Assembly: GCA_029974275.1 (NCBI GenBank)
Contig: JARKSN010000227.1
Coordinates: 1 to 32,648, forward strand
Direction: 5' to 3'
DNA from: Candidatus Hydrogenedentota bacterium
Lineage (GTDB): Bacteria > Hydrogenedentota > Hydrogenedentia > Hydrogenedentales > SLHB01
Length of the DNA: 32,648 bases
Every line of letters begins with the position of its first letter. Positions within the stretch are counted from its first letter, which is position 1. The notes below the pieces were generated by a model that made no database searches, was not told where the DNA came from, and saw only the letters and a program-made list of their open reading frames with translations. The position numbers were made by a program, and so were the translations under genes. Shown here in pieces: positions 10,984-32,404 of the stretch.

Positions 10984-10989
10984 GTTTGC

Positions 10990-11170
10990 TTTCCCCGCCA
11001 TTGCCGTTGGGAAACGGTAACTTATTGAACCTTTGCGCAACGTGGGCGCCCTCACGATGGCCGTTCGGCGTCCGCTCGGAGCGGCTTGTCGTTGGCCACA
11101 CAAATATCGGGCCCCCGGTCCAATAATTAAGGTACAAAGTTACTCGACCCATTCGAACAGGGCAGGGAAA
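10990..11170 (-). ncRNA. ssrS: 6S RNA
   Basis: 181-nt rod. 5' UUUCCCUGCC pairs with 3' GGCGGGGAAA; 6S-type motifs CCCUG..UGUUCG, GGCGCCCAC, GGUUCAA, CAACGGCA; helices GUAACU/AGUUAC, UUGUACC/GGUUCAA and GGGGGCCC/GGGCGCCC flank a central bubble; own promoter and terminator. Confidence 0.8.
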
Positions 11171-11195
11171 AACGTATTCGTTTTCCGATGTTTCC

Positions 11196-17826: not shown

Positions 17827-20403
17827 GTGAAGGTATGTATGCGCGTTGACGACGCCTCCCGATGGCGCTTCTCTCGGGCAACCATGGCGTTGGCCGCGAT
17901 CACGTTGCTTGCGTTGGGCCTCCGGCTTGCTCATCTTGCGACGGCGAGCCTGTGGTATGACGAGGGCAATACGCTTGGCGTGGCGGCCTGGACCCCATAT
18001 CCCTGGCGGCTGCTCGATACCGACTGGACCGCCGAACCGCCATTGTTTCTGATCGCGACGTACTTCTGGTTCGCTTTGGGCAAGCTCTTCGTCGCTCCGG
18101 GCACGTACGCGTGTGATTTCTGGCTGCGGCTGCTGCCTTGTCTGCTTGGAGTGGCCACAGTCCCCTTGTCCTATAGGGTGGGACGGTCGTTCACTGGCCA
18201 AAAGGGGCCGGGGTTGGTCGCGGCCTTTCTCGTGGCCCTATCGCCGTTTCACTTGTTCTACGCGCAAGAGTTGCGCGCCTACACATCCATGTTGGTGTTG
18301 GCGTTGGGCGCAATGCTGTTTCTGGTTTCCGCGCTGCGCCGAGGACGACGGCGGGACTGGGCCGGCCTGACTATCCTGCTTACGTTATCGTTGTACAACC
18401 ATTATTCGACGGTTTGGCTTGTCATCGTGTTCAATCTATGTTTTTTGGTTCATCTGTTGGGACGTCTGAGTGTGGGCCTTAAGTCCATGGGCGATTTGGG
18501 GCGGCAGACGTTGAGGTGGTCGCTTTCGCAAATCGTGGTCGCCATTCTAGCGTTTCCGGCGCTTTTGCAGGTGTGGCACATCAACCGCATGACCGCGGCG
18601 ATGACGGCCACCTGGTACCCGCCGTTGAGATGGCGGGCCGGCCTGCTTACGATCAAGGCTTTTTTCGCCGGGTATAGTCCCAACGCGGCGGCGTACTATG
18701 TCCTCAGCGCGGCCGCGTTTGTGTGCGTTGCGGCGGGTCTCATTGCGTTGCGGCGCCGGCGCGAAGAACTGGTCTTTCTGCTCTTGATCTTTGTGACGCC
18801 CATTGTCGGCAATCTCGCGATCTGGCACTCGCGGAGTTTTTCTTTTTATGAACACCGCCTTTTCATCGTCTCTTCGGTGGCCTGTTTTGTTCTTGTGGGA
18901 GCGGGCGTCTGCATGTTGCGGCGACCATGGGGGCGCGTCGCCGCAATAGGCGTGTTTGGCGCAGCCATGTTGCCGTGCATCGGGGATTACTATGCAGAAC
19001 GGCTTCATCCTCTCACGGAGCATCGCTTGGGGGCGCGCGTGAAGGCTGACTTGCGCTCCGCGGCAGAACATATTCAATCGAATTGGAAGGAGGGCGATTA
19101 CCTCGCTCATTTCAGCCACCTGACGTATCCGTCAATGGCCTACTATTACCTGTCCGATAGGCAGCAATCGACCCTGAGTTTCACCCGGCACGATGAACTG
19201 GGTCTTATCGAGAGCTATGCTTTCCCCAATTCGTGGCGCCATCTCGGCATGTTGCCGGAGCGCTTGGATGTCGTGGCGGATCGTGCGGCGCGTCTATGGC
19301 TGGCGGAATCGTGGTGGGAGCCCGAGGAGACGCCCCCGTGGGCGCAATTGTACACGGGCTGGCTGGACCGCCATGGCGTTCGCGAGGAAAACCGTGCGTT
19401 TCATGCCGTGACGCTCTATCGTTACAATCTTTCGCGCCGTCCGGGCATCTCTCTGCGCGTGGCCCAGGTGGCCGACTGGGGCTATGGGGGCGCTGTCGTC
19501 TACATGCCCGGTCCCGGCGGATCAGTTTCCGACGCGCCTCCCATCGCGCCGGCGGGCAAGGACGTCCTGACGACGCGCACGCCGCTGGATTTTGGGCTGC
19601 GCGCATCCACCGCGAACAACGGCGCCTTGCCGTCTGAAAAAGGCGCGCATGCAGTCCGGCTGGTCATCGGCAATCCGGGACCGCAACCGCGCGACCTCGT
19701 GTGCCGCGTTTTTGAATGCGTGGATGCTATCGACCCTTTGGCTTTCACGCGCGCGGCGCCGGAGCAGGATCGCTGGTTTCCGTTGATTCATGCCGAATCC
19801 CATCTGGTGGATGACATGGAACGGATTACCTTGGGAATGTCGATGCGGAGGGGCGATCCGCCGGACGAAGGCCTCTATGCGGACATGCATCTCGCGCCGG
19901 GCGCGTACCGGGCTTTGGCTCGAATGTGGCGGGAGGTGCGGGCGCAAAACGATTTCCGCGCTACGTTGCGCTTTACGCTCTGCACCGTCTCGGAGAACGC
20001 AGGAATCGTGGCGACCGAGCCGTTGGGCGAGGTGACGCCGTTCGCCGTCGCGGGGAGTCAAGGGTGGGCTTGGCTTCCTATTGGATCGTTCGTCAGTTCG
20101 GGGGCCCCCCAGCGCCTGGCCGTCACGGCGCACAATGATTCTGGCCTTGCGAAGGCGTACGCCGACCTGGGCCGAATCGTTTTTGTGCGTGCAGACTCGC
20201 TCTCTTCCGAGGAGCCTTTTGGCCCCGTGTTGGAAACGGCTTTCACGGCTGATCCGCAATCGGAGCGCGAACTCATCTTTTCCTCCTCGCTGGGGAAGGA
20301 ACTCTCGCGCCGGGTGGATGTCTCTGTGTACGATCAAAATGCGCGCATTTCGCGCAACGTGAATCTCTATATCGAGCGGGGTCTTCGGTTGGGGATCGAG
20401 TGA
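17827..20403 (+). CDS. GT-C fold (PMT/ArnT-like) membrane glycosyltransferase with large extracytoplasmic C-terminal domain
   Basis: SLWYDE, EPPLF, LSPFHLFYAQELRAY, many TM helices in the first ~390 aa, then ~460-aa soluble domain; start may be ATG 17839. Confidence 0.85.
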   Translation: MKVCMRVDDASRWRFSRATMALAAITLLALGLRLAHLATASLWYDEGNTLGVAAWTPYPWRLLDTDWTAEPPLFLIATYFWFALGKLFVAPGTYACDFWLRLLPCLLGVATVPLSYRVGRSFTGQKGPGLVAAFLVALSPFHLFYAQELRAYTSMLVLALGAMLFLVSALRRGRRRDWAGLTILLTLSLYNHYSTVWLVIVFNLCFLVHLLGRLSVGLKSMGDLGRQTLRWSLSQIVVAILAFPALLQVWHINRMTAAMTATWYPPLRWRAGLLTIKAFFAGYSPNAAAYYVLSAAAFVCVAAGLIALRRRREELVFLLLIFVTPIVGNLAIWHSRSFSFYEHRLFIVSSVACFVLVGAGVCMLRRPWGRVAAIGVFGAAMLPCIGDYYAERLHPLTEHRLGARVKADLRSAAEHIQSNWKEGDYLAHFSHLTYPSMAYYYLSDRQQSTLSFTRHDELGLIESYAFPNSWRHLGMLPERLDVVADRAARLWLAESWWEPEETPPWAQLYTGWLDRHGVREENRAFHAVTLYRYNLSRRPGISLRVAQVADWGYGGAVVYMPGPGGSVSDAPPIAPAGKDVLTTRTPLDFGLRASTANNGALPSEKGAHAVRLVIGNPGPQPRDLVCRVFECVDAIDPLAFTRAAPEQDRWFPLIHAESHLVDDMERITLGMSMRRGDPPDEGLYADMHLAPGAYRALARMWREVRAQNDFRATLRFTLCTVSENAGIVATEPLGEVTPFAVAGSQGWAWLPIGSFVSSGAPQRLAVTAHNDSGLAKAYADLGRIVFVRADSLSSEEPFGPVLETAFTADPQSERELIFSSSLGKELSRRVDVSVYDQNARISRNVNLYIERGLRLGIE

Positions 20404-20515
20404 AAAGATAATGTTTCGTTCCTGTAGCACACTAAGATTATAGTATTCGATAAAAACGTCTTCATCGAGCTGCGCGAAAAACGGATCAAACCCTATATGA
20501 GAGCGCCCCCGGCTG

Positions 20516-20542
20516 TTAAGTTCTCGCCGCCGCTGCCGATAT
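20516..20542 (+). promoter_or_regulatory. sigma28 (FliA/SigD/WhiG)-type promoter, unit 1
   Basis: TTAAGTTC-N11-GCCGATAT versus consensus TAAAGTTT-N11-GCCGATA(A/T). Confidence 0.7.
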
Positions 20543-20549
20543 ATCGCAT

Positions 20550-20716
20550 GTAAGGCAGAGGCCGGGAGCCTATGCCGCCGAAGACCCCCAAGCGGACTGT
20601 TTTCTGTATCTGGATAACGTCCAAAGAGTTTAACCCCGCTCTTCGTCTTGGAGACGTCTTGGCAATATCCTCGAGCGTTCGCCGCAATCCCCTGGTTGCG
20701 GCGATTCTCTTTTTTT
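20550..20716 (+). ncRNA. Candidate sigma28-dependent sRNA 1 (~165 nt)
   Basis: Bounded by a sigma28-type promoter and a terminator; internal helices CCAAG/CUUGG, UGGA/UCCA and AAGAG/CUCUU with a C-rich loop. Ends inferred. Confidence 0.5.
20679..20716 (+). terminator. Intrinsic terminator, unit 1
   Basis: TCGCCGCAA/TTGCGGCGA 9-bp perfect stem (11 bp with inner U-G and C-G) followed by TTCTCTTTTTTT. Confidence 0.8.
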
Positions 20717-20730
20717 GGCGCGCACATCAT

Positions 20731-20757
20731 TCAAGTTTTCCCGCTGTTTGCCGATAT
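20731..20757 (+). promoter_or_regulatory. sigma28-type promoter, unit 2
   Basis: TCAAGTTT-N11-GCCGATAT, one mismatch from consensus; begins 15 bp after terminator 1. Confidence 0.75.
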
Positions 20758-20763
20758 ATGGGG

Positions 20764-20924
20764 CGCAAGCCGAGACAAGGAGGTCGAGGCTGATTTTGAC
20801 AAGGATGTCGCAGTTGCGTAAGCAACCTGGAGTGCTTCATCCCACACTTCAGGGGGGACATTGGGGCCCCGAGTCTTACCTCCAGTGAAAGCGCCGCAAT
20901 TCGTTTGCGGCGCTTTCCGTTTTT
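20764..20924 (+). ncRNA. Candidate sigma28-dependent sRNA 2 (~160 nt) with two CsrA-type sites; may also encode a 27-30 aa peptide
   Basis: GACAAGGAGGUC and UGACAAGGAUGUCG hairpins; GUUGC-GUAA-GCAAC; CCUGGAGUG/CACUUCAGG; long-range GGAGGU/ACCUCC; ends in a terminator. Confidence 0.55.
20887..20924 (+). terminator. Intrinsic terminator, unit 2
   Basis: GAAAGCGCCGCAA (20887-20899) / TTGCGGCGCTTTC (20905-20917), 13-bp perfect stem, then CGTTTTT. Confidence 0.8.
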
Positions 20925-20967
20925 CCGGCGGCGCGCGAGAAATACGAACGAGGGGTTGATGTGTTAG

Positions 20968-20996
20968 TTGGGTGCAAGCATGCGTTTCAGTATACT
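20968..20996 (+). promoter_or_regulatory. Putative sigma70 promoter of mdh
   Basis: TTGGGT-N17-TATACT, 35 bp upstream of the mdh ATG. Confidence 0.45.
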
Positions 20997-21031
20997 TGGC
21001 GAGGCGGCCCAACGAAACGGAGGCGAACACA

Positions 21032-21982
21032 ATGCCAGGGGGAAAGCGTTTTCGGATTGCGTGCATAGGGGCGGGCAACGTTGGAGCATTGGTCGCGCAG
21101 TATTGTCTGGGCATGCAGTTGGGCGACGTGGTGCTCACGGACGTCGTGGAGGGGCTGCCTCAGGGCAAGGCCTTGGATCTGACGGAGGCGGGCCCGGTCC
21201 GCGGATACAGTTGCATGGCGATGGGAACGAACGATTACGCCGATATTTCGGGCTGCAATATCTGCGTGGTCACGGCGGGCATTCCGCGCAAGCCGGGAAT
21301 GACGCGGCTTGATCTGCTGGAAACGAACGGGAAAATCGTTTCCGACATTTGCGAGAACATCGGGCGGTATGCGCCGGAGAGCGTGGTCATTATCGTTACG
21401 AATCCGCTGGACGTGATGACGTATCTTGCGTACAAGCGGCTGGGGTTTCCGCCGCGCCGGGTCATGGGAATGGCGGGGACGCTGGACAGCGCGCGCATGC
21501 GCACCTTCGTGGCGGCGGAGTTGGGCGTGAGCATGAAGAACGTGGACACCATGGTGCTGGGTTCTCATGGCGATGAGATGGTGGCGTTGCCGGAATATAC
21601 GACGGTGTCGGGGGTTCCAATCACCCAGTTGCTGCCCAGCGATCGGATCGAGGCGATCATCGATCGCACGAAGCAGGGCGGCGGCGAGATCGTGGCGTTG
21701 TTGAAGTCCGGGAGCGCCTATTTCGCCCCGGCGGCAAGCGTGGCGCGCATGGTGCAGTGCATTCTGAACGATGAGCGTCAGATTTTGCCGTGTTCGGCGT
21801 ATTTGACGGGGCAGTACGACTTGAAGGATGTGTTTATTGGCGTTCCTGTCCGGCTTGGACAGGGAGGGGTCGAGGAAGTGCTGGAGCTTGATCTGGCTCC
21901 TGACAAGCGCGAGGCGCTTCACCGATCCGCCGCCGAGGTGCGCAAGGGTATCGAGGAATTGCATCACGTGAAGTTATTGTGA
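21032..21982 (+). CDS. mdh: Malate dehydrogenase (LDH-like type)
   Basis: GAGNVG, GLPQGKALDL, TAGIPRKPGMTRLDL (Arg102), GSHGD, GSAYFAPA; ATG 21032 with GGAGG SD. Confidence 0.93.
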   Translation: MPGGKRFRIACIGAGNVGALVAQYCLGMQLGDVVLTDVVEGLPQGKALDLTEAGPVRGYSCMAMGTNDYADISGCNICVVTAGIPRKPGMTRLDLLETNGKIVSDICENIGRYAPESVVIIVTNPLDVMTYLAYKRLGFPPRRVMGMAGTLDSARMRTFVAAELGVSMKNVDTMVLGSHGDEMVALPEYTTVSGVPITQLLPSDRIEAIIDRTKQGGGEIVALLKSGSAYFAPAASVARMVQCILNDERQILPCSAYLTGQYDLKDVFIGVPVRLGQGGVEEVLELDLAPDKREALHRSAAEVRKGIEELHHVKLL

Positions 21983-32016: not shown

Positions 32017-32092
32017 GCTGGCGTAGCTCAGCTGGTAGAGCAGCTGACTTGTAATCAGCAGGTCGGGGGTTCGATTCCCTTCGCCAGCTCCA
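32017..32092 (+). tRNA. tRNA-Thr(UGU)
   Basis: Cloverleaf; anticodon arm GCTGA-CTTGTAA-TCAGC; GGTTCGATTCC; CCA encoded. Confidence 0.97.
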
Positions 32093-32134
32093 GGCATGGC
32101 GGCGCGTCAGCCAAAGGGGTGGCGTTTTCGTTGT

Positions 32135-32217
32135 GGTGGGATGTCCGAGTGGCTAAAGGAGACGGGCTGTAAACCCGTTGGCTAGCGCCTACGTAGGTTC
32201 GAATCCTACTCCCACCA
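32135..32217 (+). tRNA. tRNA-Tyr(GUA)
   Basis: GGTGGGA/TCCCACC acceptor stem; ACGGG-CTGTAAA-CCCGT; long variable arm; CCA not encoded. Confidence 0.97.
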
Positions 32218-32234
32218 TTTTTCTTTCGATATCG

Positions 32235-32311
32235 GCGGGAATAGCTCAGTTGGCTAGAGCGTCAGCCTTCCAAGCTGAGGGTCGCGGGTTCGAATCCCGT
32301 TTCCCGCTCCA
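32235..32311 (+). tRNA. tRNA-Gly(UCC)
   Basis: TCAGC-CTTCCAA-GCTGA anticodon arm; CCA encoded. Confidence 0.97.
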
Positions 32312-32328
32312 TAATGCCTGTATCCCGG

Positions 32329-32404
32329 GCCCGCGTAGCTCAGTCGGTAGAGCACCACCATGGTAAGGTGGGGGTCATCAGTTCGATTCTGATCGCGGGC
32401 TCCA
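32329..32404 (+). tRNA. tRNA-Thr(GGU)
   Basis: CCACC-ATGGTAA-GGTGG anticodon arm; CCA encoded. Confidence 0.97.

Follow-up and report, generated by a model that had tools for sequence, protein, structure and literature searches.

Does a flagellated bacterium that controls CsrA through the protein FliW also make a dedicated RNA that competes for CsrA? The control of CsrA is usually told as two solutions, sponge small RNAs in the Gammaproteobacteria on the one hand and FliW with the ancestral flagellar system on the other. To our knowledge, the flagellin mRNA itself is the only RNA antagonist of CsrA described in FliW-type bacteria. The question is raised here by a 630-nt gap between a membrane glycosyltransferase-like gene (PMT_2, 17827-20403) and a malate dehydrogenase gene (mdh, 21032-21982) of a Candidatus Hydrogenedentota genome, located in the window, by which we mean the whole 32,648-nt stretch of DNA analysed. 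The gap contains two tandem units on the + strand, each with its own sigma28-type promoter and its own intrinsic terminator. A sequence-only reading had proposed that the second of them, unit 2, is a flagellin-leader-like RNA able to titrate CsrA, an interpretation which the comparative analysis below supports at the level of predicted features. We suggest, with confidence slightly above even, that unit 2 encodes a CsrA decoy which is driven by sigma28, descends from a flagellin leader and acts beside FliW.

Anatomy of unit 2

Unit 2 is predicted to encode a small RNA of ~160 nt (20764..20925, +), with its start placed by promoter geometry and its end by the terminator. The sigma28 (FliA)-type promoter occupies 20731..20757 (+), with a -35 element TCAAGTTT at 20731-20738 and a -10 element GCCGATAT at 20750-20757. 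Two hairpins carrying the CANGGANG hexaloop motif make up the 5' domain. Hairpin 1 (20769..20790, +) has the form GCC-GA-GAC-[AAGGAG]-GUC-GA-GGC, and its core GACAAGGAGGTC (20774-20785, +) is a 3-bp stem around the AAGGAG hexaloop; hairpin 2, TGACAAGGATGTCG (20797..20810, +), has the form U-GAC-[AAGGAU]-GUC-G and again a 3-bp stem, and its GGA sits 24 nt past that of hairpin 1. The positions and letters originally assigned to the two GGA hairpins (20774-20785 and 20797-20810, + strand) proved correct, as did the proposal that ANGGA is presented in hairpin loops, here the hexaloops AAGGAG and AAGGAU, each on a 3-bp stem. Hairpin 2 had also been matched to ACARGGAUGU, which we take to be the core of the high-affinity CsrA SELEX consensus.

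The 5' domain is followed by a small hairpin (20813-20826, +), a central hairpin (20827..20852, +) which in the MFE fold holds the tetranucleotide UCCC (20840-20843) in its loop, a C-rich, anti-Shine-Dalgarno-like 3' motif GUCUUACCUCC (20873..20883, +) and the intrinsic terminator (20887..20925, +), consisting of a 13-bp stem (20887-20917) and a U-run. The 161-nt RNA has a predicted folding energy of -68.8 kcal/mol (z-score -4.6). The conserved C-rich 3' half had been passed over in the sequence-only reading, and may confer a second activity on the RNA.

An RNA family conserved across the order

BLAST searches with unit 2 returned matches in 20 of the 41 genomes searched, the window's own included, while searching the species collection for hairpin 1 as an exact pattern gave 59 loci. 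Of these, 46 combine an upstream sigma28-like promoter with a second hairpin further down; their titles mark 28 as Hydrogenedentota-type and 14 as Nitrospirales/Nitrospiraceae, and leave 4 unlabelled. The NCBI Nitrospirales/Nitrospiraceae labels look wrong, since several of the loci are identical to relatives placed by GTDB in the same order; the fourteen MAG records with such titles that carry this Hydrogenedentota RNA include L036, L041, L042 and L047. The remaining 13 of the 59 loci belong to unrelated MAGs and have neither the promoter nor the second hairpin. The 22-nt hairpin-1 sequence was seen in exact form and with no sigma28 promoter in L050, L065 (Shewanella sp. MAG), L057 (Chromatiales MAG), L064, L084 and L091, and one Rhodospirillaceae MAG contains it seven times (L035, L037, L055, L056, L058, L067 and L081) inside a longer repeat with more GGA motifs. 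Nine non-Hydrogenedentota loci with the 22-mer, scanned against Rfam, matched no family except a tRNA.

A covariance model of the 5' domain, R1 (64 positions and 9 pairs, built from 58 sequences, promoter excluded), separates the family clearly in its own genome: unit 2 scores 56.8 bits, a paralog on contig C310 (71% identical to unit 2 over ~200 nt) 56.9 bits and the next match 16.3 bits. R1 finds matches in 98 of the 133 genomes of the order, including 66 of the 84 high-quality ones, and in 99 of the 135 genomes analysed from the phylum (Candidatus Hydrogenedentota). Copies usually number 1-4 per genome and often stand in tandem. Rfam 15 offers no family for unit 2, with none at the gathering score in a scan of the window and none relevant at E up to 10 in a scan of 20350-21100. 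On these sequence comparisons, the predicted RNA of unit 2 is a member of an RNA family that Rfam 15 does not contain. Two further RNA loci of the window are a 6S RNA (10988-11171, -; Rfam RF00013, 60.3 bits) and a cluster of four tRNA genes (32017-32401, +).

The upstream tandem unit, unit 1 (20516..20716, +), has a -35 element TTAAGTTC at 20516-20523, a -10 element GCCGATAT at 20535-20542 and a terminator at 20679-20704 followed by a U-run. Its likeness to the family in BLAST is confined to the terminator. When the filters were turned off, R1 placed it in the same register at 5.3 bits, with loops CGGGA and UUGGA and an expanded second hairpin, and no homolog of unit 1 was found elsewhere. 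Unit 1 may be a decayed tandem copy.

Conservation of the hairpin loops was tabulated over the R1 matches with E up to 1e-4, of which there are 64, 62 of them distinct, distributed over 55 loci. Hairpin 1 reads C (62), A (62), N (A 31, C 21, G 5, T 4, gap 1), G (61), G (62), A (62), N (G 36, T 14, A 9, C 3) and G (62); hairpin 2 reads C (62), A (62), N (C 42, A 13, T 4, G 3), G (62), G (62), A (62), N (T 27, G 13, C 12, A 10) and G (62). The fixed letters of both loops are therefore C-A-N-G-G-A-N-G, with all four bases occurring at both N positions, and the only deviations from the fixed pattern among the 62 members are one substitution and one 1-nt deletion, both in hairpin 1. Conservation of both ANGGA loops among homologs, on which the earlier proposal depended, is thus borne out in 62 distinct members. 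The high-affinity CsrA/RsmE site is described by Duss et al. (2014, PMC4005645) as an ANGGAX hexaloop sitting directly on a stem. This arrangement is found in hairpin 1 of 60/62 members and hairpin 2 of 62/62, counts to be read in the knowledge that the search pattern itself demanded the hairpin-1 letters in the 46 loci it supplied and that R1 favours its own consensus. Hairpin 2 lay outside the search pattern, and members scoring 26-39 bits still keep both loops.

The stems show a corresponding degree of constraint. Base pairing is retained in 98% of cells, versus 11-47% in slid controls, and compensatory changes affect 6 of the 9 pairs (22 cells) in outer and inner stems alike, a level reached by 0 of 500 shuffles. 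G-U pairs occur on the unit 2 strand only. The GGA-to-GGA spacing within the family is 20-30 nt with a mode of 23. Covariation extends to the terminator stem (46 members), where up to 13 sequences have changed on both sides of one pair. Four CANGGANG hairpins, arising through internal duplication of the two-hairpin module, were seen in L012 (1293-1551, -) and L114.

How much of this could be due to chance? Single CANGGANG hairpins show no genome-wide enrichment, with 508 in the 4.38-Mb genome compared to 476-505 in five Markov-simulated genomes. Tandem hairpin pairs number 3 in the real genome versus 0, 2, 2, 1 and 0 in the simulated ones; a tandem pair of GGA hairpins alone is not rare. The three real pairs are unit 2, the C310 paralog and the leader of a flagellin gene on contig C81, and a sigma28-type promoter precedes all three. 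It is the conservation of both hairpins which lifts this feature of unit 2 beyond chance.

Neighbouring genes and coding potential

In agreement with the earlier description of a leader with no flagellin attached, neither a flagellin gene nor any other conserved ORF follows unit 2. Its second hairpin does not overlap the ribosome-binding site of a downstream coding region. Across 25 loci the flanking genes vary (aldo-keto reductase, EF-G, rhomboid, rpoB, lptF/G, transposase and others), and a divergent flagellin gene flanks the RNA at 1 locus of the 25. Because the flanking genes are so diverse, the RNA is unlikely to be the leader of any fixed gene. A convergent truA gene (tRNA pseudouridine synthase) was observed just downstream of the sRNA in four loci (L012, L018, L021 and L023), so that the neighbourhood is conserved in part.

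We considered whether the locus could do without a regulatory RNA altogether and be a small-protein gene, a cis leader of mdh or a pair of DNA operators for a repressor. An ATG does lie within hairpin 2, and the 27-aa ORF that it opens (ATG 20805, stop 20888) ends just ahead of the terminator and is held in frame across a 3-nt indel in the C310 paralog; the ATG is, however, present in just 27 of 54 members, and of the nearest relatives one (L010) stops after 3 codons and another (L029) has no ATG, so that the ORF was rejected. The cis leader of mdh was likewise rejected, as the genes downstream differ from locus to locus and each unit ends in its own terminator. As to operators, GAC-N6-GTC is a DNA inverted repeat, but the asymmetric conservation of the loops, the G-U pairs and the compensatory changes fit an RNA and not a palindrome read by a protein. 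Taken in all its forms, this explanation appears to us highly improbable.

Probable sigma28 control

The promoter of unit 2 is an exact match to AAGTT-N13-GCCGATA, one of 8 in the genome. Promoters of the same type also precede the C81 flagellin gene, a long flagellin leader on contig C151, fliD, flgK and a FlgM-like gene, the last of which was recognised by a match of 24.5 bits, slightly below the Pfam cut-off of 25. The genome encodes FliA itself (247.8 bits against a cut-off of 189.6). Across the family, [ACT]AAG-N12-19-C[CG]GAT[AG] occurs upstream of 56 of 60 distinct R1 matches, compared to 308 of 20000 random control windows. The other four upstream windows comprise two near-misses (GTCGATA) and two second modules inside four-hairpin RNAs. 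A fixed-spacing promoter matrix was left out of these counts, as it misses promoters with other spacers. The sigma28 promoter suggested for unit 2 is accordingly a near-universal trait of the family (56/60), and we infer, on good grounds, that unit 2 is under sigma28 control.

Likeness to flagellin leaders

The two-hairpin module recurs at the start of flagellin genes. With its filters off, R1 aligns to the start region of the genome's own C81 flagellin gene at 16.2 bits, in an alignment ending at the AUG, and to two flagellin start regions of a relative (G118) at 16.5 and 24.7 bits. Between -130 and +12, one or more copies of CANGGANG occur in 17 of 20 flagellin genes from five other genomes, and two copies in 10 of the 20. 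The form that recurs is GCC-GA-UGC-[ANGGAN]-GCA-GA-GGC, followed after a GGA-GGA distance of 21-26 nt by UC-[ACGGAG]-GA over the Shine-Dalgarno sequence, and then the AUG. When 8 sRNAs were aligned jointly with 10 flagellin leaders, no columns were invariant except the C, A, G, G, A, G columns of the two hairpins. The 5' domain of the sRNA is collinear with the flagellin translation-initiation leaders in outer stem, GA/GA internal loop, hexaloops and spacing, and essentially the inner stem alone differs between the two versions of hairpin 1 (GAC/GUC in the sRNA versus UGC/GCA in flagellin). Alignment with native flagellin 5' leaders, proposed earlier as a check, therefore recovers the same two-hairpin module at the same spacing.

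A further arrangement was seen on contig C151 (~16560-16390, -) and also at L139:1000-1640 (-), where ~430-560 nt separate a sigma28-type promoter from the flagellin gene downstream of it. The promoter is followed by two GGA hairpins and, in the window's own genome, by a terminator-like hairpin, CGCG-GCGGA-CGCG plus U5. This region may be one long flagellin leader holding four GGA sites, or a further short, decoy-like transcript.

CsrA and FliW in the genome and in the order

Both csrA and fliW, the presence of which the sequence-only reading had presupposed, are found in the genome, where csrA (73 aa, beginning MLVLTRK) comes directly after fliW on contig C169. Among solved structures, this CsrA is nearest to that of B. 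subtilis (1t3o) and to the Geobacillus CsrA of the FliW complex (5dmb). Among the 133 genomes of the order, 92 have both the RNA and csrA, 6 the RNA only (completeness 60-95%), 10 csrA only and 25 neither, a co-occurrence which links the RNA with the flagellar-CsrA module and not with CsrA specifically, since the absences come mostly from one clade without everything flagellar and kin are not independent. That clade, family f11, supplies most of the 25 genomes without RNA and csrA, and within it the sole genus with csrA is also the sole genus with the RNA. Flagellin is also absent from five near-complete genomes that have neither RNA nor csrA, of which four belong to f11 and the fifth to the family of the window's own genome. 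The ten csrA-only genomes belong to flagellated lineages and count against the decoy reading. In five of them flagellin is present throughout, and a laxer search of these five gave a single match, of 24.7 bits, corresponding to part of a flagellin leader, with the other four blank.

Proposed mechanism and relation to known systems

On this basis, unit 2 would be a free-standing small RNA gene of ~160 nt, transcribed from its sigma28 (FliA) promoter alongside the late flagellar genes. Its 5' domain would be a copy of a flagellin mRNA leader, with two ANGGAN hexaloop hairpins ~23 nt apart, a form to which CsrA dimers bind tightly, and the coding region absent. Each RNA would most likely capture one CsrA dimer, spanning both hairpins, and would compete with flagellin and other flagellar messages for CsrA, such that CsrA repression would relax in step with sigma28 activity and in parallel to the protein antagonist FliW. 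We infer the transcription of the RNA, its binding to CsrA, the titration and the physiological direction of the effect from sequence and its comparison. With two sites per RNA (four in a few members), far below the number in classical sponges, the capacity for titration would depend on abundance.

The closest parallels are the flagellin leaders themselves. In the B. subtilis hag leader, two GGA stem-loops are bound by CsrA, with FliW as the antagonist, and the CsrA-titrating flaA leader of C. jejuni is reported to contain CANGGANG hexaloops (Dugar et al. 2016, PMC4894983), the form also found in unit 2. Both leaders share with unit 2 a sigma28/SigD-type promoter and two nearby GGA hairpins, and their hosts, like that of unit 2, have FliW. 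Unlike these leaders, members of the unit 2 family have no flagellin or conserved ORF after them and a second hairpin untied to a start codon, and they possess their own terminator, a conserved C-rich 3' half and unrelated neighbour genes.

Similarity to CsrB, CsrC and RsmX/Y/Z of the Gammaproteobacteria lies in being non-coding and in presenting high-affinity GGA hairpin loops, and the sequestration of CsrA for which those RNAs are known is what we propose for unit 2. In contrast to them, the unit 2 family has no Rfam match and 2 (up to 4) sites rather than many, and unit 2 stands behind a sigma28 promoter in a fliW-carrying phylum, whereas CsrB, CsrC and RsmX/Y/Z are under the control of GacA/UvrY. 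According to a review (PMC7652899), fliW is absent from the Gammaproteobacteria and anti-correlated with BarA-UvrY, the driver of the Csr sRNAs.

A literature search covering few subscription journals turned up no account of an RNA like this, either in Hydrogenedentota or in FliW-type systems of any kind. If our reading is true, dedicated RNA decoys for CsrA evolved within FliW-type systems too, and one plausible route to them would be that a target leader was duplicated and its coding part lost. The compact two-hairpin RNA and the 73-residue CsrA make tests feasible in vitro, or with B. subtilis as a chassis, in spite of the uncultured state of the phylum.

Folding of the RNA and the C-rich 3' half

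The two hairpins of unit 2 are predicted to differ in accessibility. In the full-length ensemble hairpin 2 forms with p=0.98 and hairpin 1 with p=0.03, and in the MFE structure the GGAGGU of hairpin 1 is paired with the ACCUCC of the 3' motif; enforcing hairpin 1 gives -64.0 kcal/mol versus -68.8 kcal/mol for the MFE. Hairpin 1 is nevertheless predicted to form in nascent prefixes of 50-110 nt. Of the 54 full-length members, 43 are predicted to form hairpin 1 at p>0.5, compared to 31 for hairpin 2. A conserved long-range helix between hairpin 1 and the 3' motif was considered and found unsupported, as compensatory change is lacking in the C310 paralog and just 38 of the 62 distinct members contain GGAGG.

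These predictions bear on the idea that the hairpins serve a role other than CsrA binding, be it recognition by another RNA-binding protein, loop-loop contacts with UCC-containing RNAs (the UCCC and CCUCC of the RNA itself included) or processing signals. The GGA loops are indeed complementary to the RNA's own UCC-containing motifs, hairpins with a GGAGG loop are often predicted to pair elsewhere, and the lack of enrichment of single CANGGANG hairpins (508 versus 476-505 simulated) is compatible with such a role. Against it, the loops divide into invariant and free positions just as the published CsrA/RsmE site does, and the module recurs on the start regions of flagellin genes, which CsrA is established to regulate in B. 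subtilis and C. jejuni; the long-range helix is unsupported in the paralog, and GGAGG occurs in just 38/62 members. We consider a role unconnected with CsrA improbable.

A stronger case can be made for the 3' half. UCCC occurs in the middle region of 50/54 members (19/54 for shuffled sequences), and in 44/54 the MFE leaves it unpaired; a C-rich motif stands ahead of the terminator in 52/54. A pure decoy leaves the conserved UCCC loop and the C-rich 3' motif unexplained, and they may be base-pairing seeds. The RNA could then be mainly a base-pairing regulator, its C-rich elements pairing with G-rich ribosome-binding sites while CsrA stabilises, chaperones or gates it, with a dual function also possible. 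The 3' motif is complementary to Shine-Dalgarno-like GGAGG, and CsrA is reported to affect sRNA-mRNA pairs (PMC7652899, PMC10729762). The known sigma28-dependent sRNAs, UTR-derived in E. coli (PMC10578931) and CJnc170 in C. jejuni (PMC11187230), resemble unit 2 in their FliA promoter and their place in the late flagellar regulon; unlike what we propose for unit 2, they work, going by the abstracts, by base pairing with mRNAs, and no CsrA-type hexaloop pair is described for them there. None of these sRNA families matches unit 2 in Rfam. The strictest conservation is nonetheless that of the CsrA-type loops, while the C-rich 3' motif drifts in sequence (ACCUCC, ACCCUC, AUCCCC, UAUCC), and some divergent members have lost it and kept both hairpins. 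Base pairing, as the main function or as one of two, seems to us rather unlikely, although it is the chief competitor, and the decoy reading remains the one we favour.

A dual role would have a parallel in McaS of E. coli, a dual-function sRNA which both base-pairs and binds CsrA, with few GGA sites alongside other functional regions. McaS and unit 2 could be alike in function, with unrelated sequences and different promoter classes. More speculatively, the two halves of unit 2 might form a switch in which CsrA on the 5' leader mimic decides whether the C-rich 3' half pairs with other ribosome-binding sites, and which would turn the level of free CsrA into base-pairing control of a second gene set during flagellar assembly. 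Such a switch would need hairpin 1 and the 3' motif to compete, as they are predicted to do in unit 2; we regard the switch, together with the second gene set that it implies, as doubtful.

Finally, under a loose pattern, a motif like CAGUUGAA was seen within 30 nt after hairpin 2 in 18/54 members, and by eye a CAGUUGAA-like motif is present ~100 nt past the second hairpin in long flagellin leaders of the window's own genome and of G118.
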